IMG/VR virus record: IMGVR_UViG_3300012942_000033
Span: 35,512-99,511 of that record
Direction: 5' to 3' (one strand)
DNA from: a virus
Taxonomy: Duplodnaviria > Heunggongvirae > Uroviricota > Caudoviricetes
DNA length: 64,000 bases
The position numbers were made by a program, and so were the translations under genes. Positions within the stretch are counted from its first letter, which is position 1; each line of letters opens with the position of its first letter. The notes beneath the pieces are model-generated. The model did no database searches. It saw only the letters and a program-made list of their open reading frames with translations, and was not told the origin of the DNA. This document shows, piece by piece, positions 9,378 through 60,678 of this stretch.

Positions 9378-9623
9378 TTACAGCTTCGACTTGATCTCTA
9401 TGAGAACCATTTTGAGGCCGTTTAGGGCCTCAGTGATCGTGATGTTGTTTTTGGAGTAATCGTCAATGATCTTGTAGATTTTCTCATCCTTCTTCTCGAG
9501 CTGCTTCATCAACCTGAAGCAATACCACCCGAGAGCCATGATGATGCCAAGGAGAATAGCCGTCAAAGCACCGGCCTCACCCTTGGCGATGAGAGAGACA
9601 ATGCTTTGAATCAAATCACCCAT
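9378..9623 (-). CDS. small membrane protein
   Basis: 81 aa with one hydrophobic transmembrane-like segment. Stop and start abut the PAS gene. Confidence 0.5.
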   Translation of the reverse strand: MGDLIQSIVSLIAKGEAGALTAILLGIIMALGWYCFRLMKQLEKKDEKIYKIIDDYSKNNITITEALNGLKMVLIEIKSKL

Positions 9624-9745
9624 GCGTTGTCTCCTTAATGCGACCTTATACCATATTTACCCAAAACGCTTTGCGGCCAGGTTGTTATCTGCTTACATTT
9701 CATTGGCCTTTTGAGTGATATGGTAAATATCACGTATTCCACTTT

Positions 9746-9934
9746 GTGAGTAGCCTGATGACTCTTTCTGAGCTCTTTGGGGACAACCCCCTACAAATGT
9801 CTATCGAAGAACGCCAATTCTTCGAGACAGCTAAACACCTGTGGGCCAACCAGTTCAATGCTATCATTCGAGAAAATCGAGGCCCGAAGATCAAGACGAG
9901 AATCGTAGTCAGGAAGGCCAAGAAGAATGGATAA
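9746..9934 (+). CDS. small hypothetical protein
   Basis: 62-aa ORF with a basic C-terminus; overlaps the next gene by 8 nt. Confidence 0.3.
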   Translation: MSSLMTLSELFGDNPLQMSIEERQFFETAKHLWANQFNAIIRENRGPKIKTRIVVRKAKKNG

Positions 9935-15008: not shown

Positions 15009-15379
15009 ATACCTTCCCCACAGCCTCTGATGCACGAGCAGGTTCTCGCAATAACATAGCGATCCATAACGAGATCCGAGCAATAGAATCGGATATCTAT
15101 AACGCCATTGCTCAGGGTAAGATGAACGCAGATGTCAAGGATAGCCCATTTACTGTGACACCGACCGAGGGTGCACCCGACTCAGATATCAACGCCTATG
15201 ACTATTACGGAGCTCTATTCCAGGATACGCCTGGAAGCTCTGATGTTGATCTACTCTACCGCTCACTCAAGGAGCAAATTGACATCGTTCAACAGAACTT
15301 CACCAGTCTAGGCTATCAAGTTCAACCCCTTCAGAATACTGATACGGGTAACACGTTCTTCTGGAGGATCTTATGGTAA
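15005..15379 (+). CDS. hypothetical protein
   Basis: ATGA overlap with the upstream gene. Confidence 0.5.
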   Translation: MNTFPTASDARAGSRNNIAIHNEIRAIESDIYNAIAQGKMNADVKDSPFTVTPTEGAPDSDINAYDYYGALFQDTPGSSDVDLLYRSLKEQIDIVQQNFTSLGYQVQPLQNTDTGNTFFWRILW

Positions 15380-16998
15380 TGGAATTACTCAAGATGCTCA
15401 ACGAGACTAAGCTTCATTCACGCACTCATTATGATGGCCTTGACATCAGTGTTGAGGTTCCTGCTAATGGTTATCGCCGTGGTATCAACAAGAAGACTGG
15501 TGAGGAATGGTCTTACAAGATTCCAGCCAGCTACGGTTACATCAAAGGCACGCATAGCCCTGATGGCGAACACTTGGATTGCTATCTGAGGAAGAACCCC
15601 AAGAAGGGCGCTCAGGTTTATGTCATGCACCAGTTGACACCTGATGGTTCTCGCTTTGATGAGGATAAGGTAATGCTTGGTTATTCAAGCAAGAGCGAAG
15701 CTATCAAAGCATTCAAGGGCATGACTTTCAAGCCGGGTACGATGTACGGCGGTTGTACTGAATTTGATATGGAGCACTTCCAGGTGATCGCATTCAGTGC
15801 CTCAAATAGTCACGCCATGTTGACTAAGAATGCCACCTATGATGAATTCAAACGCAAGGGCCTGCTACCCAGGAACATCAAGAGCCCACTCATGGTTGCT
15901 CGGAAGGTTTGTGAGGGTCTAGCAGAAGGTCTTAACGAGATTGGCCAGACTCTAAGTCGTGGTGATCTCGAAGAATGTCTAGATTGGTCAGGTTACCATG
16001 AAGGCAGTTCAATCGAAGCAGTTCTTACTCGTGCCTATGGTCATTACTCAGGCACACCGTACATGCATGACTTTGGAACCCTATCAGAGGAAGAGTTCAA
16101 AGCCAAAGTGCTCAACCATATCATGGAGCAGGATGCTCTTCTGACTGATACCGAGGATCATTATGGATTGGAAGAAGCTATCGAGGAACTTGAACCTATC
16201 AGTGAAGATATTGGTGATATTGAAAGCGGTGACCGACATTCACCTGATCTTGAAATCGAAGAAGTAACGGAGGAAGCCATGGAAGCCAATAACTTTGCCG
16301 TAGTGGTTCATACCCAGATGATGGAAAACATTGGCTCGGCCGAGAATCCAAGTTGGGCAACTGCTGGAACTAAGGTTCTGCTGGTTCAGGAGGGTTTTGC
16401 TACTTGGGGTGAGGCACGCTCGGTCGCTGCCAAGGTTGCTGCGGGGCAGATCTCCGTTGAGCTATCGGAGAATGCTCATGTGCTTGGTATTGATGTCATG
16501 CCAACTGCTGATTACCACTACCTACATGAAGAGGTAGTAGAAGATGAGCCAGTTGAAGAAGACATGACCGATGATGTCTTCTTCCAACAGCAGGTCATGG
16601 AGATGAAAGCAAAGGCTGGTATCCGTGATGGCTCCTATGAAAACCAGGGCACACCTAGCGTTCATGAAACTCGCGAACGTCTCGCTAAGTTGACCCAAGA
16701 CTTTTACAAGGGTCTGGAAGCTCAGGAGCTCGAGGAAGCTACTGCCAAGTTGAGTGATGGTAAGATTGCTCATGCTCTTCGAGTAGTCAAGGAGACGCTG
16801 AAGGCAAATCCACATGCCAATGTCAATCAGGCAATCAGAGCTGTTTGTAAGAGGCTCTTTGGTGATCCAAACCTCGATGAAGAAGTGATCAAATATGCCG
16901 AATTTGAATATGGCACTCTAGATGAGTTCGATGATCAGATCCGTGGTCGGAAGGCACCTGAGAAGATCTCAAGAGTTATCACCAAATACGAGAACTAA
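15373..16998 (+). CDS. hypothetical protein
   Basis: 541-aa ORF. Confidence 0.6.
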   Translation: MVMELLKMLNETKLHSRTHYDGLDISVEVPANGYRRGINKKTGEEWSYKIPASYGYIKGTHSPDGEHLDCYLRKNPKKGAQVYVMHQLTPDGSRFDEDKVMLGYSSKSEAIKAFKGMTFKPGTMYGGCTEFDMEHFQVIAFSASNSHAMLTKNATYDEFKRKGLLPRNIKSPLMVARKVCEGLAEGLNEIGQTLSRGDLEECLDWSGYHEGSSIEAVLTRAYGHYSGTPYMHDFGTLSEEEFKAKVLNHIMEQDALLTDTEDHYGLEEAIEELEPISEDIGDIESGDRHSPDLEIEEVTEEAMEANNFAVVVHTQMMENIGSAENPSWATAGTKVLLVQEGFATWGEARSVAAKVAAGQISVELSENAHVLGIDVMPTADYHYLHEEVVEDEPVEEDMTDDVFFQQQVMEMKAKAGIRDGSYENQGTPSVHETRERLAKLTQDFYKGLEAQELEEATAKLSDGKIAHALRVVKETLKANPHANVNQAIRAVCKRLFGDPNLDEEVIKYAEFEYGTLDEFDDQIRGRKAPEKISRVITKYEN

Positions 16999-24124: not shown

Positions 24125-24532
24125 TTGGTTGACCGGCTGAGGTTGGCGTCTTTGATTCTGACCAAGCCAGACCATTTAGTTCAATATCAAGCCAACTTAC
24201 CAATTGTCTATGATCCAGTGAATCGCCGCCTGGTCATTGAGGGGGATTTTGAGATCCAAGCTAAGGGCAATCTTTATCTGAACTCTGATCAGCACGTGGT
24301 GGTTCATAGCGGTAATACTGGCGGTCATTACACTCATGCGATCTGGCTCAATCCAGATCTGGAGGATGAATATGCTATCCATGTCGAAGATTGTGAACCA
24401 GGAAGCTCTCGACAGCCAGATTTACAATCCAACCACCAAGCCGTCTGTTTTGATGCTACAGCAGATCATGCAGACCACTCCGAGACCTGCTCCTTCTGCG
24501 ACTCAGCAAAATCCTCCCCCACCGCTGATTAA
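24125..24532 (+). CDS. hypothetical protein (start uncertain; TTG or GTG)
   Basis: This frame-2 ORF gives a plausible protein (QYQANLPIVYDPVNRRLVIEGDFEIQAKG). It overlaps the next ORF in another frame, so gene boundaries here are ambiguous. Confidence 0.3.
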   Translation: MVDRLRLASLILTKPDHLVQYQANLPIVYDPVNRRLVIEGDFEIQAKGNLYLNSDQHVVVHSGNTGGHYTHAIWLNPDLEDEYAIHVEDCEPGSSRQPDLQSNHQAVCFDATADHADHSETCSFCDSAKSSPTAD

Positions 24533-25295
24533 TTCCAGCGATACAAGCGTTGTGCCTCCTGAGCTGAAGGAGCACGTTGATGCCTTCTTCGCCCTACCAA
24601 CCACAAACCCCTACTATGGAGTTTTGGTCAATCCAGCATCATGTCTAATCGATGACATCAGGAATAACTTCACTGATTTGAATCAAGCAGGGCAGGATCT
24701 TGATGCCGCCTCTGGTCAAACTGATTGGGCTGATTACCAGGATGAATACGACCAAGACACGCAGGATATCGCTTCGGATCTCGATTCGATCCAAGATCAC
24801 ACAGATCGCCTAACGAGCAATCTACCAAGCCTGGCAGGAGTAGCACAAGGCGCCCTAGCCCTCGCTACTGTGATGAACCTTTTGAGTAATCCGTGTCTTG
24901 GTCTGGATGGCATGTTGGGGAGTGTCATGGATTCAGGTAAGCAACTCCTCAATGATGTGGCTAATCAGGTTAAGGCTGGTATTGGTCAGATCACAAGTGC
25001 TATAGGAGATGTGACATCTGCAATCCAATCCGGAGTACAGAGTGCAATCACCGCTGCTAAGGCGGCTATTGGACCACTCATGGATCAGATCAAAGATGGT
25101 ATCGCGGTAGCCAAGCAACAGGTTAGTGCTTTCATTGATAAGGCAAAGACCGAGATCATGAACTTTGCCAAAGCGGCTTTGGCACAACTACGTCAAGGTT
25201 TGGCTGAATTGATGGCTAACCTACCACAAGATCCTTGTCTGCGTGGTCTCCTAACCAGCGCGGCAACTGGCGCGGCCGCAGCAATCATCAAATGA
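24456..25295 (+). CDS. hypothetical protein (Gln/Ala-rich helical, possibly structural)
   Basis: The long open frame begins at 24336. Internal ATGs at 24369 and 24456 are alternative starts. The C-terminal half is coiled-coil-like. Confidence 0.45.
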   Translation, partial: LQQIMQTTPRPAPSATQQNPPPPLINSSDTSVVPPELKEHVDAFFALPTTNPYYGVLVNPASCLIDDIRNNFTDLNQAGQDLDAASGQTDWADYQDEYDQDTQDIASDLDSIQDHTDRLTSNLPSLAGVAQGALALATVMNLLSNPCLGLDGMLGSVMDSGKQLLNDVANQVKAGIGQITSAIGDVTSAIQSGVQSAITAAKAAIGPLMDQIKDGIAVAKQQVSAFIDKAKTEIMNFAKAALAQLRQGLAELMANLPQDPCLRGLLTSAATGAAAAIIK

Positions 25296-26269
25296 CCAAA
25301 CCAGCAGTAAGAAAGGGTGATAAGTGTACGGGTCATGGCGACGCAAAGCCAAGACCTTGTGACCAGGGTTCACCTGATACTTTCATCAATGGTAAGGCAG
25401 CCCACCGCCAGGGTGACCATTGGGCAGTTCATAAAAATCATGACAGTCACCTCGCAAAAGGTTCTGATTGCGTCTTTGTGAATGGTAAGGGTCAGGGTAG
25501 GGTTGGTGATCCTATCCTTTGTGGAAGTCGGTGCCAACAAGGTAGCCCGAACGTCTTCGTAGGTGATAATTCGAGTAGTGGCGGATCAAGTCAGTCAGGC
25601 CAAGGAGCAGCTTCTGCACCAATTGATTACACCAACCCATACCGCTTTGAAGGTGGTGCTGGTGCGGATGGTTATTCGGGTTCAGGCACCATTGAGACTG
25701 AAGGCGGCGTTACTGGTGCTAGTGATTCCGATACACCAGCCTCTGATCCTGATTCACAGGAGCCACTAGACGCAAGTGATGATGACGTTGATTGGCTCAC
25801 CACGTGTATGATTGATGAGGCGGGTAATCAGAGCCAGAAGGATGCTTGGGCAGCGGTAGCCGCTGTGGTAGTAGATCGACTACAGACTGGTAGAGCGACC
25901 GGAACGGTTAATCCGGCCTGGCACGGAACTATCAAGGGTATCGTTCTAGCTAATGGTCAATTCTCGGGCTTCTACTTTGAGATGATCAACCGTCACTACA
26001 CTAGAGTCGTAGCAAGCAAGGATTGGGCGGCTGCTGAAAAACGTGGCAAACAGAAGATGGCACGATATCGTCAGCGTTCTCAATGGAATGCCTTCCATGA
26101 GGTGGCCCAACAGGTCGTCAATGGATCCTACCAGGGCGGTGCAGGCTGGAGATTAGTTAAGAGTCGCCCTGCGCTCATGTACTGTAATCTGGCCATCTCA
26201 AATCCGCCCTGGGCCACCCAGAGCAAATATGTCACTAAAATCGAGGATCACACCTTTTTCGTGGCTTGA
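25292..26269 (+). CDS. PAAR-like domain protein fused to a SleB-type cell-wall hydrolase
   Basis: N-terminus has PAAR/gp5.4-like Cys/His/Gly repeats (KGDKCTGHGD...GSPDTFINGKAAHRQGDHWAVH...VFVNGKGQGRVGDPILCGSRC...SPNVFVGDN). C-terminus has a SleB/Hydrolase_2-like segment (CMIDEAGNQS...VVVDRL...GIVLANGQFSGF). ATGA overlap with the upstream gene. Confidence 0.6.
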   Translation: MTKPAVRKGDKCTGHGDAKPRPCDQGSPDTFINGKAAHRQGDHWAVHKNHDSHLAKGSDCVFVNGKGQGRVGDPILCGSRCQQGSPNVFVGDNSSSGGSSQSGQGAASAPIDYTNPYRFEGGAGADGYSGSGTIETEGGVTGASDSDTPASDPDSQEPLDASDDDVDWLTTCMIDEAGNQSQKDAWAAVAAVVVDRLQTGRATGTVNPAWHGTIKGIVLANGQFSGFYFEMINRHYTRVVASKDWAAAEKRGKQKMARYRQRSQWNAFHEVAQQVVNGSYQGGAGWRLVKSRPALMYCNLAISNPPWATQSKYVTKIEDHTFFVA

Positions 26270-26294
26270 CATCTTGGTGTCACGTTGCTATATA
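26266..26294 (+). promoter_or_regulatory. sigma70-type promoter driving the tmRNA gene
   Basis: TTGACA (26266-26271), a 17-nt spacer, then TATATA (26289-26294). This places the transcription start near 26301, just ahead of the tmRNA acceptor piece. Confidence 0.55.
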
Positions 26295-26300
26295 GGATGG

Positions 26301-26760
26301 GCTATTGAAGACCGACGCCAAGTATCGACTAGCGGACGCGGGGGCAGTACCCGCCAGGTCCACCATAGCAAGTGACCTAGGAGCACTCGGAGCAATCCGG
26401 GCGGCGCCAACACCACCGAGGGAATCGAAGGATCTCAACCGGATCTGGGTCTTGAGGATGGTATGAGGAAGGGTGGATGAAAGTGAGGCACCGCGGAAGG
26501 CCTCATGAGTAAGGTAAGTCACTTGCTTTGCTGGGCCTGAACTTAGGATCGACGTGGAAGAGAACGGCCGAGAGAAGATCCGGGAAACCGGTGAAGCGAT
26601 GGTAGGGGTGGCACCCTGGGGAAACCCGCAAAGCCACGCATGTAAATGCAAACGACAACACTGTCGAGGTCGCTCTCGCCGCTTAATTGTGGCGCGGGTA
26701 ACCGCCTAAAGTCTTAGGGCTTCGACTCCTTAAGCGCGGTATGGTTCCACCGGGCAACAG
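26301..26760 (+). ncRNA. ssrA: circularly permuted (two-piece) tmRNA gene (ssrA); acceptor piece precedes coding piece
   Basis: The acceptor 3' end GGACGCGGGGGCAGUACCCGCCAGGUCCACCA (CCA at 26363-26365) matches the E. coli tmRNA 3' end GGACGCGGGUUCAACUCCCGCCAGCUCCACCA. Downstream, GGGCCUGAACUUAGGAUCGACGUGG (from 26533) matches the tmRNA 5' end GGGGCUGAUUCUGGAUUCGACGGG. The tag frame GCA AAC GAC AAC ACT GTC GAG GTC GCT CTC GCC GCT TAA (26648-26686) encodes ANDNTVEVALAA followed by stop. The 3' boundary is approximate. Confidence 0.8.
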
Positions 26761-26827
26761 AAAGGGCCAACCTTCCTATTACTCTTGACCTATTGGTAAA
26801 CTCCATTATTCTGCCGGGTAATGGGGT

Positions 26828-28615
26828 ATGTGGATAGATCAGGGAGACCACAGAAACCTTTATAACGGGTCGCATCCAAGGCTTACATCTCCGGAGCGGG
26901 GGTTTGCTATGTCGGATGAGCCAGTTAATTTTTCATGGATTGACCAAGCGTTGGTCTATGATCAAGACAAAGAGGAACGAGTGGATAAAGCAATCAAATC
27001 CGACATCAACATCAAGATGCTTACCGAACTCGCTCCTACTATCATATGGACGCGGAATCCTAAGTGGGATTTGACCTATATCAACTCATTCTGGTTTGAA
27101 TTCACTGGATGTCAGGATAGGCCAGTCAGTGAGATTGATTGGCAGGTCTTCATCCATCCTGATGATCTACCTACCATTACAGCTTATTGGAAGACCGCTC
27201 TTGAGCTCAACTTGGAGTTCAAGGTTGATTTTCGCCTTCGCCGCCGAGACGGTGAATATAGGTGGTTCCAATCAGTAAGCCGGCCAGTCACCAACAAAGC
27301 CGGTGAAGTCATTCAGTGGCTCGGTGTTTCGTCGATCATCCAAGACCTCAAAGAGGCACAGGAGGAGACCGAACGTCTTCGTCAGGAACTTGAGGAGAAA
27401 GTTCTCCAAAGAACCCAGGCCCTTGAGGAAGCACAGGCACAGGTTCTAGCCGAAATAAGCGCACGTCAGGCCACCCAGGATGCTCTTCGTCAAGCTCAGA
27501 AGATGGAGAGCGTGGGCCAATTAACTGGTGGCATTGCGCATGATTTCAACAACATGCTCACGGTGATCATTGGTAACCTTGAGTTACTCAAAATGAGTGC
27601 GCCCAAGTTGGGGGATAATCCAGTCGCGAAACGCATGGAACGCAATGTCAGTATGGCGATCGAAGCCTCGATTAAAGCCGAGAAGCTTACTGCTCAGTTG
27701 CTAGCGTTCTCGAGAAAAGCCCGTCTTCAGCTTGAACGTCTTGATGCCAATGCGGTCGTTGTTGGTGTCAGAGAAATGGTTGAACGAGCTGTTGGTATCG
27801 CTGTTAGTTGTGAGATCGACATACAGGATGATCTCTGGCTTTGCCTTTCGGATAAGACCCAGCTCGAGAGCGCAATCATTAACCTGGCTATCAATGCTCG
27901 CGATGCAATGCCTCTGGGTGGTAAGTTGTGTATCTCCACGGCCAACAAGGAAGTTGGTGATCTACGCTTCGTTAGTGTTTCGGTCAGCGATACCGGTCAG
28001 GGTATGAACCTAGAAACCCTGGAGAAGGCTTGCGAACCATTCTTCACCACCAAGGACGTTGGTAAGGGAAGCGGTCTTGGGCTCTCGATGGTTTATGGAT
28101 TCTGCCAGCAAAGCAATGGCAAGTTGATTCTTGAGAGCGAGGAAGGCCATGGCACTACTGTTGAAATGCTCTTCCCCTATACGGCTGGCGAAACCATTGA
28201 GGCCACCCAAGCGGAGGAAGACTTCAACTTTGATGCCAACAAACAAAGCATCCTAGTTGTTGATGATGAACCAGCGGTCAGAGAATTAGCGTGTCAGCTA
28301 TTGACTGATGCGGGGTTCAATGTCGTTAGCGCTCAAGATGGTCAGACGGCCATCAATATAGTCAAAGACCTCACCATACCACTCGACCTTCTATTCACTG
28401 ATATCGTGATGCCAGGCGGCATTGACGGATTTAGTCTAGCCAAGGTGGCCAATCAGGTACGCCCCACTCTACCTGTTATCTTTACGACTGGCCACGCGGA
28501 AGTTGCCCTCAAGGAATTGAGGAAGGATCTGTCGCAGAAGCTCAAAGTCATCGGCAAACCTTACCGGTTGAACGAGTTGAAGCAAATGATCCTTCATGAA
28601 CTGGCTATCCAGTAA
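26828..28615 (+). CDS. hybrid sensor histidine kinase (PAS, HisKA, HATPase_c and C-terminal receiver)
   Basis: PAS-like N-terminus. H-box [20 protein letters not shown]-boxes DTGQGMN and [14 protein letters not shown]. Receiver domain [12 protein letters not shown]...[14 protein letters not shown]...TTGH. The true start may be the downstream ATG (MSDEPVNF). Confidence 0.8.
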
Positions 28616-29088: not shown

Positions 29089-29613
29089 ATGAGCCTGAAT
29101 GACTTTAAGACTGCGACGACCCTGATGAAGGCTATGGAAGAAGGTCCCCAATATGTAAGAGTTACTGCTGGATCACGCATTGGGACTATAGGTAGGGTGA
29201 TGATCATACGCACCAAATACTACAGCGCTCATGAGTATCAGCTAGCTGTCAAAGGCCGCCGTAGTTTTTGGATGAAAGGTAGTGACCTAGAGCACCTTCC
29301 AAACCATCGTGGCGGCACCCATTATGTCGTGAACCATGAGACGCCAACGTATAATGACCTAATGGGTCGTCGTATCGAGGTAGGCCAAACAATCCTCTTC
29401 CCCCGAGGCTGCGAAGGAGCAAGGGTGGATATGGTCATGGGCACAGTTCGCAGGATCAGCAATAAGGGCACCATCTACGCCAAACTCTTCAAGAGTGGCC
29501 ACAGTAACGATCTGGCTGGTAGGTTGGTCAGGGTTGGCAAGCCAGGCAGCGCTATGATAATCGATAAGGGAACCACCGACCAAGTGATGCTAGCCAAGTT
29601 GGCTGCGTTCTAA
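29089..29613 (+). CDS. hypothetical protein
   Basis: 174-aa ORF. Confidence 0.5.
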   Translation: MSLNDFKTATTLMKAMEEGPQYVRVTAGSRIGTIGRVMIIRTKYYSAHEYQLAVKGRRSFWMKGSDLEHLPNHRGGTHYVVNHETPTYNDLMGRRIEVGQTILFPRGCEGARVDMVMGTVRRISNKGTIYAKLFKSGHSNDLAGRLVRVGKPGSAMIIDKGTTDQVMLAKLAAF

Positions 29614-29625
29614 GAAAGGGAGTCT

Positions 29626-30000
29626 ATGTCGAATGGTCGTATTCTTCTAGTTGAGGATGAGCCAATGCTCCATTTCCTCTGGGAGGATATATGCGCGATC
29701 AACGATTTCGAAGTTGCCTTCACGGCCATGACCTGCCAGGAGGCGCTGGCTTACCTGGAAGAGAATAGTGATGACCTCTCGGGTGTTATCCTTGATGTGA
29801 ACCTACACGGTGAGATGTCTAATAGGGTAGCCGCCTATCTTAGAACCCTTGCCTTGCCAGTGGTAGTATCAACGGGTAGTCATCCAGATACGCTACCTCT
29901 GGAATTCAAGGGATGGCCCACACTTTGTAAACCTTACCGCCCTCACGACATTGTGAGCATTTTGCCAACCCTGGCTTTTAGCAAGCAGACAGTTAGGTAA
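29626..30000 (+). CDS. stand-alone response-regulator receiver (CheY-like) domain protein
   Basis: ILLVEDEP acidic pocket, VILDVNLHG with a candidate phospho-acceptor Asp, and VVVSTGSH. 124 aa with no output domain. Confidence 0.5.
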   Translation: MSNGRILLVEDEPMLHFLWEDICAINDFEVAFTAMTCQEALAYLEENSDDLSGVILDVNLHGEMSNRVAAYLRTLALPVVVSTGSHPDTLPLEFKGWPTLCKPYRPHDIVSILPTLAFSKQTVR

Positions 30001-30454: not shown

Positions 30455-30464
30455 GATTTGACAG

Positions 30465-31127
30465 GTGACTCACCGTTCGCTTAGAGCGGTTCACATGGAT
30501 TTCATGGCCTTCCTCACCGCAACGCAGAATCTGGCTTTCCTTATTGCTGGCATTCTCGTAGCAGCAATCTTCGTCGTCGAGTTCCTAGGAACTATGATCG
30601 GGTTCTCCTTAAGTCATCTAGGACCTGACTTCCACATTGACCTAGATCATGATGGCACACCTGATCACCTTGAGGGTGCGGGCCTTATGGCTTGGCTCAA
30701 TCCTGGTGGCGTGCCGTTTATGATCTTCCTCACGTTGGGGACCACTATCTTCGCGATAGTGGGTTATGCGATTCAGGCTGTGAGTTGGTCTAACACCGCT
30801 TACCTTCTGCCTGGATTGGTCATTTGGCCAATTTCATTCCTATTGACGCTCATATGCGTTCGACCTTGGACCCGCTGGATCAACCGGGTTCTACCAAGGG
30901 AAGAAAGTAGCGATGTCAGCCTTAGCAGCCTTGTTGGTGAGTCTGGCGTAGTGACTGTGGGCCCTGTAACCAAAGAGCAATTTGGTTTCATCAGGGTTCG
31001 CGACAAGTTTGGCACTGATCATTCGATCCAGGTCGCAGCAAACAATGATGAGGTGTTTGCGATTGGTGCCGAAGTTCAACTAGTCGGACCTCACCCTACT
31101 AACCTGTATGCGTATCTAATCCGCTAA
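30465..31127 (+). CDS. NfeD-like membrane protein (partner of the SPFH/flotillin protein)
   Basis: Several N-terminal transmembrane helices. C-terminal OB-fold-like segment (GESGVVTVGPVTKEQFGFIRVRDKFGTDHSIQVAANNDEVFAIGAEVQLVG). Lies directly upstream of the flotillin gene, as in NfeD–SPFH operons. Confidence 0.6.
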   Translation: MTHRSLRAVHMDFMAFLTATQNLAFLIAGILVAAIFVVEFLGTMIGFSLSHLGPDFHIDLDHDGTPDHLEGAGLMAWLNPGGVPFMIFLTLGTTIFAIVGYAIQAVSWSNTAYLLPGLVIWPISFLLTLICVRPWTRWINRVLPREESSDVSLSSLVGESGVVTVGPVTKEQFGFIRVRDKFGTDHSIQVAANNDEVFAIGAEVQLVGPHPTNLYAYLIR

Positions 31128-31139
31128 CTGGAGAAAACC

Positions 31140-32876
31140 ATGTCTATCAAGTTCATTGGCTTGCTAGTCGGGCTGGCGGTCGTAGGATTCCTGATCCTCG
31201 GCATGATCATCACCCGGCTATATAAGCGAGCTTCCAAAGAGACTGCCTTCGTTCGCACCGGTATGGGCGGCCAGAAGGTGATCAAGGATGGCGGTGCGCT
31301 CGTCATTCCAGTCGTTCATGAAACCCTCGATATCAATATGCAGACCCTTCGTCTGTCGGTAAATCGCGGTGGTCAGAACGATTCGCTTATCACAAAGGAT
31401 CGCTTGCGCGTTGACGTGAATGCTGAATTCTACGTTCGGGTTGCTCCAGATACGGAGAGCATTGCTACGGCGGCTCAGACGCTTGGTCGGCGAACAATGG
31501 ATCCTAGCCAGCTAAGCACCCTCGTTGAGGGCAAGTTCGTTGACGCCCTGCGCGCTGCCGCTGCTTCGATGGATATGCAGGATCTGCATGAGAAGCGCAC
31601 CGAGTTCGTTCAGAAGGTCAAGACGACTGTTGCGGAGGATCTGAAGCAGAACGGTCTTGAACTTGAGTCGGTCTCGCTGACCAACTTGAACCAGACTGAC
31701 ATCAGTCACTTTGACGCCAACAACGCCTTCGACGCCGAGGGTCTTGCGGTCATTGCCAAGGTCACTAGTGCGCGCCGCAAGGAGCGCAATGACATCGAGA
31801 AGCAGACCGAGGTCGAAATCGAGACCAAAAATCTCGAGTCAACCAAGCGCACCTTGGAGCTCAAGCAAGAGGGTGAATTTGCTCGCCTGGATCAGGAGAA
31901 GCAGGTTCAGACTCGTGCGGCAGAGCAGGAATCGCAGCTTGCTATCGCTCGTGCGGAACGTGAACGTGAGGCGGCTGTCGCTGCTGAAGCGGCGAAGCAG
32001 GCGTCGGAACAGGCTCGTATTGAGCGTGAACGTGGCGTGAAGGTGTCTCAGACGGAAGCTGACCAGGCCACTGAACTGGCGGCTCAGGCCTCGCGTATTG
32101 CGGTTGCGGAGAAGTCAGAGGCAGAATCCAAGGCGAAGGCCAAGGCTGATGAGGCGCGAGCCGAAGCAACCAAGGCTGCTGAAAACGTGACGACCGTTTC
32201 GGCCACCGCACGAGCTGATCGTGAGGCGCAGATTGCGGTTATCGCTGCCGAGGGTGAAGCGAAGCAGAAAGCCGCGAGCATCACGGTTCAGGCCGAGGCT
32301 GAGCTCAAGGCTGCTGATTCACAGGCCAAGGCCAAGGAACGTCTCATCGAGGCTGACGCCAAGCGTTACGAGGTCGAATCCACGGGTCAGCGTTCGCTCC
32401 ATGAGGCTGGCAACGTGATCAGCCCCGAGAGCATGAACTTCCAGCTTCGGAAGGCCATGGTCGAGCGTCTGCCTGAGATCATCGAATCGATGACTAAGCC
32501 CATCGAGAAGATTGACAGCTTCCGTGTCGTTCATATGAACGGAGGCCTCAACATGGGCCATGGTGCTGCCAATGACGGCGCACCGGCTCTCGATAAGGGT
32601 AGCCTGTCGAATCAGATGACTGACGCTCTGCTGAACTATCGTATGCAGGTGCCATTCGTCGACGCGCTGGGCAAGGAACTCGGTATCGATTTCACTCAGG
32701 GCATGAATGGCATGGTGACTTCGGCGGGTCTCCCCGTTGAGGTTTCGGATCTGCCGGAAGAGCCCAAGCCCTCGATTCCGACCGAAGCACCTCGGTCTGC
32801 CACTACTCGTGAAGCCCCGCTGGCTCCTGAGGATAAGGCAGAGATCCAGAAGCTTGCTGGGATCGCCAACGGCTGA
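31140..32876 (+). CDS. flotillin-like SPFH/band-7 protein (FloT/YqiK-like)
   Basis: N-terminal transmembrane helix plus SPFH core, then a long Ala/Glu/Lys/Arg-rich coiled coil (EREAAVAAEAAKQASEQARIERE...). Confidence 0.8.
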   Translation: MSIKFIGLLVGLAVVGFLILGMIITRLYKRASKETAFVRTGMGGQKVIKDGGALVIPVVHETLDINMQTLRLSVNRGGQNDSLITKDRLRVDVNAEFYVRVAPDTESIATAAQTLGRRTMDPSQLSTLVEGKFVDALRAAAASMDMQDLHEKRTEFVQKVKTTVAEDLKQNGLELESVSLTNLNQTDISHFDANNAFDAEGLAVIAKVTSARRKERNDIEKQTEVEIETKNLESTKRTLELKQEGEFARLDQEKQVQTRAAEQESQLAIARAEREREAAVAAEAAKQASEQARIERERGVKVSQTEADQATELAAQASRIAVAEKSEAESKAKAKADEARAEATKAAENVTTVSATARADREAQIAVIAAEGEAKQKAASITVQAEAELKAADSQAKAKERLIEADAKRYEVESTGQRSLHEAGNVISPESMNFQLRKAMVERLPEIIESMTKPIEKIDSFRVVHMNGGLNMGHGAANDGAPALDKGSLSNQMTDALLNYRMQVPFVDALGKELGIDFTQGMNGMVTSAGLPVEVSDLPEEPKPSIPTEAPRSATTREAPLAPEDKAEIQKLAGIANG

Positions 32877-32906
32877 TCCTACCCTAGCAGGGCTTTGTAG
32901 GGAGGG

Positions 32907-33647
32907 GTGGCAGAAGTGCCACCCCTTTCCTATCTGAGTCTTTCTGTTGTAGACATTTCGGTAGCGAGCGCTAATACTGACTCTGACATGAGGAATAGCA
33001 TGACATTACGTATCGGAGGCATCGCAGCTTTGTGTGGTGCAGTTTGTGTCTTTGTGGGTGGTATGGCTGCGTTCCCCTTACATCTTATCGGTGACCTCAT
33101 GGTCAGCACTCCACTATCTGTGGCAACGGGTGTGGGTATTTGGTATTTCTGGCCTGGCCGCAAACCAGCCAATGATATCGAGACTCTGCTGAACGATCAG
33201 GAACTCCTCAAGAATGCGACCGGTCTGAGTAAGCGAGACATCGTCGAGACAATCAGGCTAGTAAGTGATAAGTTGGATCGCATCCTCATGAGTGCTGCTC
33301 AGATAAATGAGCCTAAGGTCACACGTCGTATCCAACATCTTGATGCGATTGGTCGGAAGATCATCGACGAGTTCAGGGTGCGACCCATTGGAATCCAGAG
33401 GTCACAAACATGGATCCATGCCTACTTGGATCAAGCCATTGAGTGCGTCGACCAATATGCTCAATTACATGGATCGAAGATCCGCAATGACGAGGTGCGA
33501 CGTCAGATGGTAGAGTTTGACGATATGTTGGTCGAACTCCAGGAGAAGTCGCAGGAATTGCTTGATCTGCTACTGACCCATGATACGACGACCTTCGATG
33601 TCAATGTTTCAGTATTTCGTGATATGATGAAGAACGAGGGAATCTAA
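32907..33647 (+). CDS. membrane protein (possibly XpaC-like); start likely downstream at MRNSMTLRIGG
   Basis: Two N-terminal transmembrane segments then a helical domain. Its position directly upstream of a TelA-like gene mirrors the Bacillus xpaC–yaaN pair. Confidence 0.35.
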   Translation: MAEVPPLSYLSLSVVDISVASANTDSDMRNSMTLRIGGIAALCGAVCVFVGGMAAFPLHLIGDLMVSTPLSVATGVGIWYFWPGRKPANDIETLLNDQELLKNATGLSKRDIVETIRLVSDKLDRILMSAAQINEPKVTRRIQHLDAIGRKIIDEFRVRPIGIQRSQTWIHAYLDQAIECVDQYAQLHGSKIRNDEVRRQMVEFDDMLVELQEKSQELLDLLLTHDTTTFDVNVSVFRDMMKNEGI

Positions 33648-34810
33648 TGACCGAGGCAACTATGACGCAGACCACCCTACCAGCTCTGACTCCTGAGGCA
33701 TCTCAGGTCTTGGATTCAACCTCGCTGGTTAGTTTGGCGCCGGCAGGCTCAGCGATTCAGATCACGAGTGTTTCTGAAGAGCGAGCCAAGGAGTTGGCTC
33801 AGAAGATCAACATCCACGACACACAGAGCATTATCGGCTTCGGTGTTGAAGCCCAGAAGGGTGTGACCCAGCTGAGTGAACAGATGCTTGAGGGTGTGCG
33901 AACCAAGGATACTGGCCCGGCTGGTGAAGCCCTCAACCTTATGGTTCATGAGATGCGTGGGCTGGATTTCAGCAAGCTCACATCCAAGCAAGGTTTGGTG
34001 GCGAGGATCCTCCACAAGGCCAGCAAGGTCACGCTATTCCTCGAGCAGTATGAAACGGTTCAATCGAAGATCAACAAGACCCAAGCGGTTCTTGATAGTC
34101 ACCGTATCCAGATGCTTCGTGGAGTGAAGGTGCTTGATCTGCTCTACAAGAAGACCCTCGAACTCCTGTATAACCTGGATGAGCAGATCGCAGCCGTTCA
34201 ATATAAACTCAACGAGGTCAACGCTAAGGATATCCCCGAGGCAAATGAGAAGGCCCAGCAGACCAAGGATATGGCTGACACCCAAGCGGCTGCTGATTTG
34301 ATCCAAGCTCGTGATGCCTTGGAGCGAAAGCTTCATGATCTACAGCTGAACCGCCAGATCACCATCCAGGCCCTACCTAGCATTCGTATCGTTCAATCCA
34401 ACGAAGTCGGTCTTTCGGAGAAGATCCAAGGCCAGATCCTCAACGCTTTGCCTCTTTGGAAGCGTAATATCGCACTAGCAGTCGAAATGGCGAAGACGCA
34501 GAATGCTGCCAAGGCCACCAAAGCAGCTAGTGATTTTACCAATGAACAGCTTCGTATTGGTGCGCAGATGCTTCAGCAATCCAACCTAGCGGTTCGAACT
34601 GAAATCGAGCGCGGTATGGTTGACATTGACAGCGTCAAGTTTGCCAACGATCAGTTGATCCAGACTATTGAGGATACGATCACGATCGCTCAGGAGGGTA
34701 AGAATATGCGAGCCCAGGCGGAACAGGAGCTCGCCCAGGCCGAGCAGAAGCTCAAGGAAACGCTTCTGAGCGCTGCTAATCGACAGGCGAATATGAAGGC
34801 TCTCGCGTAA
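33647..34810 (+). CDS. TelA-like (toxic anion resistance) family protein
   Basis: 387 aa, helical, with TelA-like conserved segments (IGFGVEAQKGVTQLSEQML, LNLMVHEMRGLDFSKL). ATGA overlap with the upstream gene. Confidence 0.55.
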   Translation: MTEATMTQTTLPALTPEASQVLDSTSLVSLAPAGSAIQITSVSEERAKELAQKINIHDTQSIIGFGVEAQKGVTQLSEQMLEGVRTKDTGPAGEALNLMVHEMRGLDFSKLTSKQGLVARILHKASKVTLFLEQYETVQSKINKTQAVLDSHRIQMLRGVKVLDLLYKKTLELLYNLDEQIAAVQYKLNEVNAKDIPEANEKAQQTKDMADTQAAADLIQARDALERKLHDLQLNRQITIQALPSIRIVQSNEVGLSEKIQGQILNALPLWKRNIALAVEMAKTQNAAKATKAASDFTNEQLRIGAQMLQQSNLAVRTEIERGMVDIDSVKFANDQLIQTIEDTITIAQEGKNMRAQAEQELAQAEQKLKETLLSAANRQANMKALA

Positions 34811-35259
34811 TGCGAAAAGCCACCCTTATCCTGGGTTGGTTGTGTCTTATCGGCGCGGTGGAGGGGCCAGGGCTCATAGCTAGCCCACCTGATAAGTTTG
34901 GATCACACGTAATCCAAATCGATCACGTCTATGATGGTGATACCTTCTACTTCAGGATGCCCGGTGCTTGGTCAGAGATCAGCATGGTAGGTGTTAGGGT
35001 GTTGGGTATTGACGCTCCTGAGAAGCGTGGTCGATGCCCTGCTGAACGCGCCTTGGCAAAAGAAGCCACTATTATGGCTCAACGCTTCTTAAGCCGTGGC
35101 CCGGTCACATTACAGCACGTTCGTTGGGACAAATACGGTGGTAGGATTGAGGCTGATGTTCTGGTTGACGGTCAGAGCCTCTCCGAGTATATGATCGACC
35201 AGAAGATGGCTCGACCCTATATGGGTGGTCATCGAGACAAAATGGAGTGGTGTCGTTGA
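34810..35259 (+). CDS. thermonuclease (staphylococcal nuclease-like) with an N-terminal signal or transmembrane segment
   Basis: SNase motifs GDTFYF and VRVLGIDAPE plus conserved Arg residues; hydrophobic N-terminus. Confidence 0.7.
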   Translation: MRKATLILGWLCLIGAVEGPGLIASPPDKFGSHVIQIDHVYDGDTFYFRMPGAWSEISMVGVRVLGIDAPEKRGRCPAERALAKEATIMAQRFLSRGPVTLQHVRWDKYGGRIEADVLVDGQSLSEYMIDQKMARPYMGGHRDKMEWCR

Positions 35260-35762
35260 CTGAGCAGTTTACTCTTTTCTACGGTGGGCCGGCAAGCCAA
35301 TGGTATGCCAGTGAGTTCACTGTTGATGGAGTGACCTACAACACCGCTGAGCAATACATGATGGCGCAGAAAGCCATCCTTTTTGATGATGCCGATGCCC
35401 TAGACATCATCATGAATACCGATAATCCGAAGATCCAGAAAGCCGCAGGTCGCCAGGTTCGAGGTTTCGATAAGGCACTCTGGGAGCAGAACGCCAAACT
35501 CTTCGTCTACCGCGCCAATTTCGCCAAGTTCACTCAGAACGCCGACCTTTTGGAATGGCTCATAGCAACTGTCGGTACAGCCCTTGTAGAAGCAAGCCCC
35601 TGGGACACCATCTGGGGGATAGGATTGGCAGCTAGTGATCCTCGAGCGCTAGATCGAAAGACCTGGAAGGGCACTAACTGGCTCGGTGAGATTATTACCA
35701 AGGTGCGCGCTGACATCATTGCGATGTCGATGATTCTCTTGGAACACCCGTTGGTATCCTAA
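35247..35762 (+). CDS. NADAR domain protein (YbiA/RibX-like N-glycosidase)
   Basis: FYGGPASQWYASEF..DGVTYNTAEQYMMAQKA...FTQN...LLAT...LVEASPWDTIWGIG aligns with E. coli YbiA. Confidence 0.7.
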   Translation: MVSLTEQFTLFYGGPASQWYASEFTVDGVTYNTAEQYMMAQKAILFDDADALDIIMNTDNPKIQKAAGRQVRGFDKALWEQNAKLFVYRANFAKFTQNADLLEWLIATVGTALVEASPWDTIWGIGLAASDPRALDRKTWKGTNWLGEIITKVRADIIAMSMILLEHPLVS

Positions 35763-41056: not shown

Positions 41057-41117
41057 TGGTTGACACTCACCAGTCTGGTGCTAGATCTAGCCTTGAGACA
41101 ACAAGGAGATCGACGTG
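41057..41117 (+). promoter_or_regulatory. conserved promoter/leader cassette (second copy)
   Basis: TGGTTGACAC...ACAAGGAGATCGAC-GTG. The -10-like element is weaker here (GGTGCT). Confidence 0.35.
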
Positions 41118-42242
41118 CTGAATAAGCTGATGACACCGGAGACGAAGAAGCTGAGCAAGGCCTTTGACATGGCCGGCTTCGAAATCCGTTTCGTCGGCGG
41201 CTGCGTTCGGGACGTTCTGCTGGGTGTTGAACCCAAGGATGTGGATTTCTGCACTGACGCCACTCCTGACGAGATGCGCGATATCGCGGTAATCAACAAG
41301 TTCAAGTTCCTGCCCACTGGCATCGATCACGGCACCGCAACCATCGTAGTTGATGGTGAGCCCTTTGAGGTCACCACCCTGCGCGTTGATGCGGAGACTG
41401 ATGGTCGTCATGCCAAGGTCGAGTTCACCAGGGATTTTGAACTGGATGCCGAGAGGCGTGACCTGACCATCAACGCAATGTCGATGGATACAAAGGGCAA
41501 TCTCTTCGACTATTTCGGTGGCCAGGAGGATCTGAAGAACAAGGTCGTGCGGTTCGTCGGTGATGCGAAGACGCGCATCGAGGAGGATTACCTGCGTATC
41601 CTGCGTTACTTCCGTTTCGCGGCTCGGTTCGATGCACAGATGGATCAGGAGACGCTGGATATCTTCAGCGATCCTGAAGTGCTGGCTGGTCTGAATCGAG
41701 TTAGTGTTGAGCGGTTCTGGTTGGAGATGTCAAAGCTGCTGACCTATAGCGCTCGGGTGCGAGTCATGGAGGCTATCTTTGGCACTGGCGTCAATGCTTC
41801 GTTGAATCTGTTTCGGTTCGAGCCCAATGAGCTGAGCCGGGCCGATGATGCGGTGGCCGCATTGGCAACGCTGATCTCGAGCGACGACGAGGAGCGGTTC
41901 TTCCAAATCTGGAAGATGAGCTCTCCGGAGGAGGCAAAGGTTCGCAACATGATCCGTAACCGCGGTGGGTTCCTGGATGAAGTGCGCGTTGAGGTCATGC
42001 TGACCCGCGATAAGTTCCCCAGGGATCACGTGGTGAGCCTGGCTCTGGTCGCCAGTGAGCCCACGCTGGCTCAACATGCTAGGGATTTTGTTGTTCCGAC
42101 CTTCCCCATTACGGGTAAGGATCTGATGGGTGTTGGTATGGCTCCAGGCCCACAGATGGGTCAGCGCCTGCGTCGGATGGAAGCAGCCTGGGTTGATAGC
42201 CGGTGGAACCTGGCCAAGGAAGCCCTGATGGAGATCGAGTAA
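41115..42242 (+). CDS. CCA-adding tRNA nucleotidyltransferase / poly(A) polymerase family protein
   Basis: Class II nucleotidyltransferase head motifs: FVGGCVRDVLLG, DVDFCTDATPDE, GIDHGTATIV, RRDLTINAMS. GTG start. Confidence 0.8.
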   Translation: MLNKLMTPETKKLSKAFDMAGFEIRFVGGCVRDVLLGVEPKDVDFCTDATPDEMRDIAVINKFKFLPTGIDHGTATIVVDGEPFEVTTLRVDAETDGRHAKVEFTRDFELDAERRDLTINAMSMDTKGNLFDYFGGQEDLKNKVVRFVGDAKTRIEEDYLRILRYFRFAARFDAQMDQETLDIFSDPEVLAGLNRVSVERFWLEMSKLLTYSARVRVMEAIFGTGVNASLNLFRFEPNELSRADDAVAALATLISSDDEERFFQIWKMSSPEEAKVRNMIRNRGGFLDEVRVEVMLTRDKFPRDHVVSLALVASEPTLAQHARDFVVPTFPITGKDLMGVGMAPGPQMGQRLRRMEAAWVDSRWNLAKEALMEIE

Positions 42243-45885: not shown

Positions 45886-46431
45886 CTATCTACCGCCGGG
45901 TAGACTCGCAAACACATGGGCTCCGATACGGATCTTATTAACTAAGCGTTGGGTCCAAGAAAACTTCAACCGTGCCTGGTAGAAGAACGTAGAACCATCC
46001 GTAGGGTCATTCACTTTCTCCCCACTAATGAGTAAGACCGCTTTGCGTTGGCTTTCGAGCCATGCTGCCTTCTCATGTGGAATTTGTGCTCTCAATGGCC
46101 ACCTAGTCCAAGAAAATTGCCCTGGAGACCACACGACATCGCATACAGTATTGGCATTGAATGCGTCATGGTGAGTTCTGTTTAGGGTAACAAATCCAAC
46201 TGCCCATTGATCTCGAGAAGTTCCTCCTCGGATCTCATGATAGATGTTGAGTGCCATACACAACATCTGATCCTGATCGGTCGGGTCGGCTTGCTCAATT
46301 TGTGGGTCTATATCCCCTTGAGCCCTGACCGCACTGAGTAGCGCTTGGTATCTAGGTAGTGTCTCCGCTGCGGCTTGGTTGGGCGTTAGCCATAGAGACA
46401 TGAGGAGCACCAATGCTCCTAAAAATTTCAA
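45886..46431 (-). CDS. secreted SleB-type cell-wall hydrolase (candidate endolysin or spanin-region lysin)
   Basis: N-terminal signal peptide (MKFLGALVLLMSLWLTPNQAAA). Hydrolase_2-like core (ALNIYHEIRGG...AVGFVTLNRT...VCDVVWSPGQFSW). Confidence 0.6.
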   Translation of the reverse strand: MKFLGALVLLMSLWLTPNQAAAETLPRYQALLSAVRAQGDIDPQIEQADPTDQDQMLCMALNIYHEIRGGTSRDQWAVGFVTLNRTHHDAFNANTVCDVVWSPGQFSWTRWPLRAQIPHEKAAWLESQRKAVLLISGEKVNDPTDGSTFFYQARLKFSWTQRLVNKIRIGAHVFASLPGGR

Positions 46432-47193: not shown

Positions 47194-47646
47194 ATGGCTT
47201 TGGTTGATCCAGAACGACCGGAAGATCAGATGGCTTTACTCGATGAAGCCAGCATCTACTTCCTGCGAGCAATCAAGCAGCATTATACCCGAGATACATC
47301 ACTTGATGTAATGGAAGCCCTTACGCCCATTCTGGGTAAGGATTGGAAGGGGCGGATCATCTTTGGTCTGATGGCGAATAAGCACCAGGCCATTAGGGCT
47401 ATCAGTATTAACCGTATGACTGCCCCTGCACTTGTGAATAAGATCAAGGCAATCAAGGAAGTTCGAGCAATCAGTCGGTTGGGTCTCGTTGAAGCTAAGA
47501 CTCTTGTTGAGGCGGCGTATGAGCGCTCACAGGTTGTTAAGGTGGCTGAGCAGCCCGAAACCATGTCTCAGGATAGTTGGAATCTGATCCTAAGCAATAG
47601 TATCAACGCCATCAAGGATGCTGGCTTTAGAGTGGAGATCTCATGA
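47194..47646 (+). CDS. hypothetical protein
   Basis: 150-aa ORF with a GTTGACAC box upstream (47144-47152). Confidence 0.5.
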   Translation: MALVDPERPEDQMALLDEASIYFLRAIKQHYTRDTSLDVMEALTPILGKDWKGRIIFGLMANKHQAIRAISINRMTAPALVNKIKAIKEVRAISRLGLVEAKTLVEAAYERSQVVKVAEQPETMSQDSWNLILSNSINAIKDAGFRVEIS

Positions 47647-60618: not shown

Positions 60619-60678
60619 TTGACACCAATTACGCTCGTGTTAATCTCCCCGTTATCTATAGGAAAGGAAGTACTGCCT

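Follow-up and report, generated by a model that had tools for sequence, protein, structure and literature searches.

A YqiJ-flotillin-XpaC-TelA gene module of Phosso-like jumbo phages that may protect the host inner membrane

We examined a module of four genes, encoding a YqiJ-like protein, a YqiK-type flotillin, an XpaC-like protein and a TelA-family protein, within a 64,000-nucleotide stretch of DNA (the window) that corresponds to positions 35,512-99,511 of IMG/VR record IMGVR_UViG_3300012942_000033, a virus of the Caudoviricetes. A sequence-only reading of the window, made without database searches, had placed four consecutive genes at 30465-34810, and four consecutive plus-strand open reading frames (ORFs) were found exactly there (30465-31127, 31140-32876, 32907-33647 and 33647-34810 in longest-ORF coordinates). 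The genes, given with the starts preferred below, and the features that accompany them are as follows.

30458-30486, plus strand: promoter-like element 5' of the yqiJ-like gene (TTGACA at 30458-30463, a 17-nucleotide spacer and a weak -10, TTAGAG, at 30481-30486)
30495-31127, plus strand: yqiJ-like gene; product with three predicted transmembrane helices and a C-terminal OB-fold, the NfeD-like partner of the flotillin
31140-32876, plus strand: YqiK-type flotillin gene (578 residues), with Band_7 and Flot domains
32850-32864, plus strand: codons for KLAGI, residues 571-575 of the flotillin, a motif specific to the phage clade
32904-32935, plus strand: terminator-like hairpin GGGGTGGCA-GAAG-TGCCACCCC followed by a T-rich stretch; separates the flotillin gene from xpaC
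32950-32978, plus strand: sigma-70-like promoter element for xpaC-telA from a consensus scan (TAGACA, a 17-nucleotide spacer, AATACT)
33000-33647, plus strand: xpaC-like gene (215 residues); product with about two predicted N-terminal transmembrane helices and a cytoplasmic four-helix bundle
33647-34810, plus strand: telA (387 residues); soluble, all-helical product that includes a long helical hairpin; the first nucleotide of the gene is also the last of the xpaC stop

Searches against Pfam placed all four proteins above the gathering cut-offs, and the family assignments of the sequence-only reading thus did not fail at the level of profiles. The YqiJ-like protein matched YqiJ_N (8e-20, 71.6 bits against a cut-off of 23) and YqiJ_OB (9e-7, 29.3 bits against a cut-off of 25.4) but had no match to the Pfam NfeD model at E<=0.1. 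The earlier label "NfeD-like" therefore holds in the sense of an NfeD-like YqiJ partner of YqiK, YqiJ being treated as an NfeD homologue (PMC2636767), whereas YqiJ itself is the tighter family. Similarly, the "FloT/YqiK-like SPFH flotillin" of that reading is an SPFH protein of YqiK type, with Band_7 (PF01145, 2.8e-19, 70.3 bits against a cut-off of 23.6) and Flot (PF15975, 6e-31, residues 391-516), but it is not a FloT, as it reached only 64.7 bits against the cut-off of 700 of the NCBIfam FloT equivalog NF058507. The small membrane protein was correctly recognised as XpaC-like (Halogen_Hydrol, PF10112, 1.2e-18, 68.2 bits against a cut-off of 29.8, covering profile positions 15-190 of 191), and membership of the TelA family was confirmed by a full-length match (PF05816, 1.8e-84, 284 bits, profile positions 2-331 of 332) as well as by a match to phrog_5890, "tellurite resistance" (4e-45). 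Sequence searches of the PDB returned no match for the flotillin or TelA.

Kyte-Doolittle hydropathy analysis predicted that three of the four proteins are membrane-anchored and that TelA, which lacks a transmembrane segment, is soluble. The predicted transmembrane segments of the YqiJ-like protein lie at residues 13-31, 75-93 and 104-122. The flotillin has a single hydrophobic segment (residues 6-24, mean hydropathy 2.87), which would serve as an N-terminal anchor and is followed by the SPFH domain (residues 38-184), an Ala/Glu-rich coiled-coil region visible in the sequence at about residues 200-400, the Flot domain and a Pro/Glu-rich tail. An AlphaFold2 model of TelA, with a predicted local distance difference test score of 68, places two long helices at residues 127-206 and 209-285, and comparison of TelA with XpaC by hhalign revealed no homology between the two.

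The phage origin of the module, claimed in the sequence-only reading, was borne out and could be narrowed to a jumbo phage. The window encodes a DnaB-type helicase, a class Ia ribonucleotide reductase, both T4-type topoisomerase II subunits, virion proteins and a CCA-adding enzyme, and among cultured phages it is closest to Sinorhizobium phage Phosso (469 kilobases, kb; topoisomerase large subunit 70% and virion protein 37% identical), followed by Agrobacterium phage Atu_ph07 (topoisomerase 60%) and then by Rak2/PA5oct-like jumbo phages. At the DNA level there was no close relative, since a blastn search of deposited phages gave a weak SPFH match to Phosso as its sole match. The module proteins are encoded on a 125 kb metagenomic contig. 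An RNA gene of the window bears on the host:

26262-26772, plus strand: permuted transfer-messenger RNA of alphaproteobacterial type (Rfam alpha_tmRNA RF01849, 98.8 bits; tag peptide by ARAGORN, ANDNTVEVALAA)

Because this RNA is of alpha type and the cultured relatives Phosso and Atu_ph07 point the same way, an alphaproteobacterial host fits, and the sequence suggests that the phage infects an alphaproteobacterium.

Genes 491-494 of Phosso (PV764938.1) are the same four genes in the same order, annotated in that record as hypothetical, SPFH domain, hypothetical and toxic anion resistance. The window proteins are 29% (YqiJ-like, E=5e-25), 48% (flotillin, across 95% of its length), 22% (XpaC) and 45% (TelA) identical to their Phosso counterparts. 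The order is likewise kept in 12/12 further phage loci (L002, L003, L005, L006, L009-L012, L014 and L099-L101), which comprise every related phage locus that could be retrieved; they are metagenomic and IMG/VR contigs (the IMG/VR loci being L002, L003, L009-L012 and L014), several of them of 436-481 kb. In L005 and L006, each of 464 kb, synteny with the window extends from a hybrid histidine kinase gene to that of the CCA enzyme; L099 measures 480 kb, L101 481 kb and L100 157 kb. Some phage-collection records with TelA or flotillin matches were left out of the phage counts because they are short or odd-sized and resemble fragments of host chromosomes; such records (H6-H23 and H44-H48) include Listeria phage LM 4-14-1 fragments, Staphylococcus phage SA 1306 Kay (386 kb) and Salmonella phage S.Kent 1-2-1. 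Atu_ph07, the next cultured relative, was absent from the tblastn results for TelA and flotillin, and distant viral TelA loci (L013 and L015-L018) have TelA alone, with no XpaC, YqiJ or flotillin nearby. Because these phages lack it, the module marks the Phosso-like branch of jumbo phages (about 460-480 kb).

Protein identities among the module-bearing phage loci fall as low as 18-51%, and the flanking genes vary by branch. The ratio of nonsynonymous to synonymous substitution rates (dN/dS) was 0.05-0.18 for all four genes across three independent phage pairs (0.086 for yqiJ against L002, 0.078 for the flotillin gene and 0.054 for telA), and all four genes are under purifying selection. The phage sequences form one clade in the TelA tree and one in the flotillin tree. 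By neighbour-joining, the phage TelA clade, Phosso included, is monophyletic with respect to 80 bacterial TelA proteins (bootstrap 65/100 with Phosso, 100/100 for the core), and the window flotillin falls, with the other phage flotillins, within a 76-member clade that excludes all named bacterial flotillins. The phage flotillins also share a feature at their C terminus, a [KRQ][KR]LAGI motif that is present in Phosso as well. In the phage clade, 71 of 79 flotillins have LAG[IVL] among their last 40 residues, and in most of the other 8 a closely similar sequence (RAGI, NAGI, RAGL or LSGI, for example) takes its place. Outside this clade LAG[IVL] was found in 3 of 54 flotillins, at a non-homologous position. 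This KLAGI tail may be a docking motif.

We next considered how the four genes are likely to be expressed. The yqiJ-like gene probably starts at ATG 30495 (210 residues) rather than at the GTG of the longest ORF, because GTG 30465 sits within a conserved TTGACA promoter-like element. By the same kind of argument xpaC starts at ATG 33000 and not at GTG 32907, because the latter lies within the conserved terminator hairpin and GAGGA precedes ATG 33000; a database gene call (P0241) of 215 residues is 100% identical to XpaC starting at this ATG. The yqiJ-like ATG begins 8 nucleotides after the weak -10, and the transcript may have no leader or a very short one. The same arrangement, a TTGACA or ATGACA -35-like hexamer, a 17-nucleotide spacer, a weak -10 and an ATG 7-8 nucleotides further on, recurs in the window, L002, L003/L005, L009, L011 and L014, and TTGACA is also present 5' of yqiJ in L010 and Phosso, with different spacing. 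The yqiJ-like gene ends 12 nucleotides 5' of the flotillin gene, and a GC-rich hairpin with a T-tract stands directly 3' of the flotillin stop in 11/11 distinct phage loci; the stem sequences differ while the pairing is kept, and 8 of the 13 pairs in the RNAalifold consensus show compensatory double changes. The promoter-like element of xpaC follows 10-25 nucleotides past the hairpin, at a position conserved in 9 loci, in the form TAGACA (TAGACT in Phosso), a spacer of 16-17 nucleotides and a TAtAat-like hexamer. The promoter motif is not enriched across the window, where the strict pattern misses the window's own variant, and a generic promoter scan of the window returned fewer sites than expected by chance. 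We infer that both promoter-like elements are functional from one line of evidence, their positional conservation across loci. Because the conserved hairpin and the separate promoter-like elements split the module, it is predicted to form two tandem transcription units, yqiJ-flotillin and xpaC-telA. A strong terminator follows telA in L003/L005/L009/L010; none was found there in the window or L002, where the next gene overlaps the telA stop, and in the window the xpaC-telA unit probably reads on into the nuclease and NADAR genes described below.

To set the module against its bacterial counterparts, we compared it with 80 loci carrying the most similar TelA proteins (40-46% identity; Gamma- and Alphaproteobacteria) and one Thiorhodovibrio locus, 81 in all. 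The sequence-only reading had described XpaC/TelA and NfeD/SPFH as separate conserved operons of bacteria. Both pairs do exist there, XpaC lying directly 5' of TelA in about 68/80 loci and YqiJ-YqiK forming a conserved bacterial pair (PMC2636767), but the former does not stand alone: with a dedicated profile, a gene for an SPFH protein of a different type (Band_7_1 at about 330 bits, with a C-terminal GYF_2 in Pfam) was found 3' of TelA on the same strand in 45/81 loci, enough downstream sequence being present in 74 of the 81. Of these 45 genes, 28 are adjacent to or overlap TelA, 11 are separated from it by one gene and 6 lie at 1.9-5.3 kb; in Rhodobacterales a DUF2927 gene stands between the two. 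In L062 (6943-11777) and L090 (7015-12468) the cluster reads XpaC, TelA, the Band_7_1+GYF_2 protein and a zinc-ribbon protein of about 400 residues. A first reading, that the two pairs are joined only in phages, came from a search in which 0/80 bacterial TelA loci had an SPFH gene; it was rejected when a relaxed search revealed the Band_7_1 proteins, to which the flotillin-trained profile is blind. What survives of it is that none of the bacterial TelA loci examined has a YqiJ or YqiK-type gene within 8 kb; conversely, the dedicated profile found the Band_7_1+GYF_2 gene in none of the phage loci.

Because 45/81 bacterial TelA loci have a downstream SPFH gene, TelA-SPFH coupling predates the phage module, which is a paralogue-swapped variant of a bacterial TelA-SPFH system. 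What is special to the phages is the type of the SPFH partner, a YqiK flotillin accompanied by YqiJ, and its position upstream. The XpaC-TelA core (TelA about 40-46% identical) and an SPFH gene on the same strand are common to the phage module and the proteobacterial cluster, whereas the proteobacterial SPFH protein has about 370 residues, lacks a Flot domain and lies 3' of TelA with the zinc-ribbon gene, and proteobacterial XpaC is longer, with extra N-terminal membrane segments that phage XpaC lacks, although it keeps the cytoplasmic bundle. With the E. coli-type yqiJ-yqiK operon the module shares the domain architecture of both proteins and their adjacency (PMC2636767). However, the bacterial YqiJ-YqiK pairs examined, one sphingomonad locus among them, have no XpaC or TelA nearby, and the K/R-LAGI motif at the C terminus is specific to the phage clade of flotillins. 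YqiJ-YqiK pairing as in the window was seen in the bacterial loci L007, L008 and L102. The Phosso module agrees with that of the window in its four genes and their order, in the hairpin and promoter-like element between flotillin and xpaC and in the KLAGI-type tail, but it has no SNase or NADAR gene downstream, and a gene for a 174-residue protein directly abuts its yqiJ.

These comparisons also bear on the possibility that there is no functional unit at all, and that two independently acquired pairs lie side by side through inherited gene order, each acting alone. The conserved terminator and separate promoter-like element between the pairs would be compatible with this, as would the wider synteny of the clade (DUF7217, PAAR, the 174-residue protein, the module and SNase/NADAR), the different taxa to which the closest bacterial relatives of the pairs belong, and L100, which tolerates an ORF between xpaC and telA. 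However, the four genes stay contiguous although the genes that directly flank them are not the same in the Phosso branch as in that of the window, and bacteria independently link TelA to SPFH proteins (45/81) and PspA to YqiJK; that TelA and SPFH proteins should have come together twice by chance is unlikely. We therefore regard a merely inherited neighbourhood as improbable.

The name of the TelA family raises a further possibility, a literal resistance to toxic anions or xenobiotics such as tellurite that would benefit an infected or pseudolysogenic host. Plasmid TelA/KlaB confers tellurite phenotypes, TelA/KlaB homologues occur on 377 plasmid records (among the matches listed, mostly conjugative plasmids of Enterobacteriaceae and Pseudomonas), and Iyer et al. 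mention xenobiotic resistance during pseudolysogeny (PMC7824862). YqiK-type flotillins are present on 322 plasmid records as well (among the matches listed, mostly E. coli conjugative plasmids), and each half of the module is thus independently common on mobile elements. Against tellurite as the target, no TerB, TerC, TerD or TerF was found among the window ORFs that were scanned with Pfam, neighbours of the module included, and the ORFs scanned gave no sign of lysogeny. Tellurite is, moreover, rare in nature. Loss of telA in L. monocytogenes reportedly raised sensitivity to nisin 4-fold and to tellurite 2-fold (Collins 2010, cited in PMC12791056). Resistance to tellurite in the literal sense is the most improbable of the functions that we considered.

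The Firmicute xpaC-telA (yaaN) operon, in which the same two families are adjacent, is likewise tied to stress by antimicrobials that act on the envelope, such as nisin and daptomycin, xpaC-telA being up-regulated in daptomycin-resistant E. faecium (PMC6811118). Unlike the phage genes, however, these are host genes under cell-envelope stress two-component systems, and their TelA is about 33-36% identical to that of the phage. A second parallel is provided by B. subtilis pspA-ydjGHI, where PspA, a soluble helical stress protein, depends for its recruitment to the membrane on YdjI, which is an SPFH protein, and on two membrane proteins, YdjG and YdjH (PMC8581546); comparative genomics has also placed genes for Band 7/FloT and NfeD proteins next to that of PspA (PMC9239133). 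As in the phage module, a soluble long-helical stress protein is combined with an SPFH scaffold and small membrane adaptors (PMC8581546, PMC9239133), but PspA and phage TelA have no detectable homology. In one bacterial contig (L102, 4641-7701) with a Halopseudomonas-type flotillin (P0235), PspA_IM30, YqiJ and YqiK are encoded in a row. All four effector-scaffold combinations thus apparently exist: PspA with YdjI (B. subtilis, from the literature), PspA with YqiJK (L102), TelA with Band_7_1 (many proteobacteria) and TelA with YqiJK (these phages). YdjI is presumably a member of the Band_7_1 subfamily.

Taken together, we consider it about evenly balanced (a probability of roughly 0.5) that the module is a phage-borne, host-derived kit for stabilising or protecting the inner membrane of the host. 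The flotillin would be anchored by its one N-terminal transmembrane helix, would oligomerise through its SPFH, coiled-coil and Flot regions and, with YqiJ and its three transmembrane helices and OB-fold, would assemble into an SPFH scaffold or microdomain at the cytoplasmic side of this membrane. XpaC would act as a membrane adaptor that brings the soluble, long-hairpin TelA to the same membrane, and the four proteins together would stabilise or repair the inner membrane, keeping it energised while a phage of roughly 460-480 kb completes its infection cycle, and lessen the harm from insults to the membrane, among them envelope stress, pore-forming host effectors and competitors. That the two halves work together at the membrane is suggested by the recurrence, across genomes, of a helical effector with an SPFH scaffold and small membrane adaptors. 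The physical interaction between the halves, the recruitment of TelA by XpaC or the flotillin, the timing of the module's expression and its protective phenotype are steps that we infer. The sequence-only reading had proposed membrane remodelling or protection against envelope stress, which is a reasonable interpretation and is strengthened by the conservation of the module, the purifying selection on it and the bacterial parallels. The comparison with host operons that it had envisaged did recover both pairs in bacteria but also placed TelA-SPFH coupling there already, with the other SPFH type.

Several observations weigh against a membrane-protection kit of this sort. The halves are separated by a conserved terminator and have their own promoter-like elements, so that they may not be co-regulated, and L100 has an extra 141-residue ORF (9495-9920, no Pfam match) between xpaC and telA. 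Gene order in this region of jumbo phages is broadly conserved, which makes adjacency weaker evidence than it would be in bacteria, and the absence of Atu_ph07 from the search results makes the module accessory. Fold searches with TelA gave generic helical hairpins or bundles only, and those with the XpaC model, a four-helix bundle, gave generic or designed helical matches and no hydrolase-like fold, although the name of the Halogen_Hydrol family would imply a phosphate-ester hydrolase. An hhalign comparison of TelA with PspA returned a probability of 3%, no detectable homology, and the PspA parallel is therefore an analogy only. Finally, PHROGs has a family for TelA and none for the other three proteins, and PADLOC-DB 2.0 gave no defence-system match for any of the four.

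Other genes of the window, several of them close to the module, are as follows.

7715-9376, minus strand: four-PAS protein, a two-component part
24336-25295, plus strand: DUF7217 protein, followed by the PAAR-hydrolase fusion
25235-26269, plus strand: PAAR motif fused to a cell-wall hydrolase, by domain matches
26828-28615, plus strand: cytoplasmic hybrid histidine kinase (PAS-HisKA-HATPase-REC), a two-component part
29089-29613, plus strand: 174-residue protein with no Pfam match, the upstream neighbour of the module
29626-30000, plus strand: stand-alone receiver domain, a two-component part
34810-35259, plus strand: SNase-family nuclease with a signal peptide (Pfam SNase 1.3e-7; phrog_452 endonuclease); its start overlaps the telA stop
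35247-35762, plus strand: NADAR-domain protein; overlaps the end of the SNase gene (PADLOC candidate PDC-M42C, 3.8e-41)
45886-46431, minus strand: Hydrolase_2 protein, a separate cell-wall hydrolase

The SNase-family nuclease is probably co-transcribed with telA and stands outside the conserved four-gene core. Homologues with a signal peptide or lipobox lie 3' of telA in 9/11 phage loci and are absent in Phosso and L099; the core clade keeps the SNase and NADAR pair, which the Phosso branch lacks. This nuclease lends some support to superinfection exclusion, the main rival to membrane protection, by which the module would form a membrane or sub-membrane barrier that blocks the entry of DNA from secondary phages and the periplasmic SNase of the core clade would degrade misdelivered DNA. 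Iyer et al. 2021 read phage TelA/Ter genes as sub-membrane structures that bar competing phages or xenobiotics (PMC7824862), the nuclease gene follows telA directly in most loci and overlaps its stop in the window, and the promoter-like elements resemble host sigma-70 promoters, which would suit early expression. However, no homology to known exclusion proteins was found, the Phosso/L099 branch retains the four-gene core without the nuclease, and the bacterial TelA phenotypes concern envelope-acting antimicrobials and not phage entry. Exclusion overlaps with protection of the membrane and is compatible with it, but as the function of the module we consider it rather unlikely.

Yet another explanation is control of lysis timing or proteolysis: by gating a membrane protease or a holin, the SPFH complex of the phage would time lysis or make phage proteins more stable, assisted by TelA and XpaC. 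HflK/C and FtsH are an established case in which SPFH proteins regulate a membrane protease; HflKC is discussed in 10.1101/2022.07.25.501378. The two cell-wall hydrolase genes, at 25235-26269 and 45886-46431, lie elsewhere in the window; the PAAR fusion is probably a tail-tip or injection lysin and the Hydrolase_2 protein probably an endolysin. However, no protease, holin or spanin gene adjoins the module, YqiJ is without a protease domain, and to our knowledge YqiK-type flotillins have no FtsH partnership. Control of lysis or proteolysis is, on this evidence, very improbable.

The remaining neighbours mostly follow the branch structure of the phages. A homologue of the 174-residue protein lies upstream of the module in 11/11 phage loci, abutting yqiJ directly in L099 as it does in Phosso (28% identity), and it may be a fifth component or a mere syntenic neighbour. 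The kinase and receiver genes are conserved just 5' of the module in the core clade (the kinase in L002, L003, L005, L009 and L101) and do not adjoin it in Phosso, and a regulatory link between them and the membrane module is possible. The histidine kinase also has a weak PADLOC match to PD-T4-6. DUF7217 and PAAR genes lie near the module in L099 and L100 too, and Phosso has an annotated PAAR gene nearby. Elsewhere the window encodes a 541-residue protein (15373-16998, plus strand) with an N-terminal InPase (inorganic pyrophosphatase-like) domain, a region that also matches parts of giant PHROG families, including virion and DarB-like proteins, as well as the CCA-adding enzyme (41115-42242), a protein with an L7/L12 C-terminal-like segment (47194-47646), a ClpX-like AAA+ unfoldase with a zinc finger (59362-60618) and a full IF-3 (IF3_N+IF3_C; 60619-61197).

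In the literature we found no account of YqiJ-flotillin-XpaC-TelA modules in phages, nor of the linkage of XpaC-TelA to Band_7_1 in bacteria. Already on record are phage TelA, alone or in Ter operons, the SPFH ORFs of T4-like phages, which establish that phages carry SPFH-domain proteins, and the module itself, deposited uninterpreted in the Phosso record. The stand-alone TelA genes or Ter operons of the jumbo phages CBB, GAP32 and Lak and of Caulobacter phages resemble the module in having a phage TelA, but that TelA is about 24% identical, and the review by Iyer et al. 2021 does not mention SPFH, NfeD or XpaC (PMC7824862).

Bacteria widely carry TelA and XpaC, the former being found on plasmids and in phages too, and both have been connected with nisin, daptomycin and tellurite tolerance. 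The coupling of TelA to SPFH proteins in two independent ways, in bacteria with Band_7_1 and in jumbo phages with a YqiK flotillin, together with the similar coupling of PspA, yields a testable hypothesis, which we put forward as doubtful but specific: TelA would be a membrane-repair or remodelling effector, functionally interchangeable with PspA and delivered to the membrane by SPFH scaffolds, and in the phages, with their short XpaC and KLAGI docking tail, it would have become part of a streamlined life-support or anti-defence device that seals and energises the inner membrane against depolarising abortive-infection effectors or competitors. Phosso grows on Sinorhizobium meliloti in culture, which makes genetic testing feasible. 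Overall, the presence of a whole flotillin/NfeD-like pair under selection in giant phages points to active management of the host inner membrane in the course of infection.

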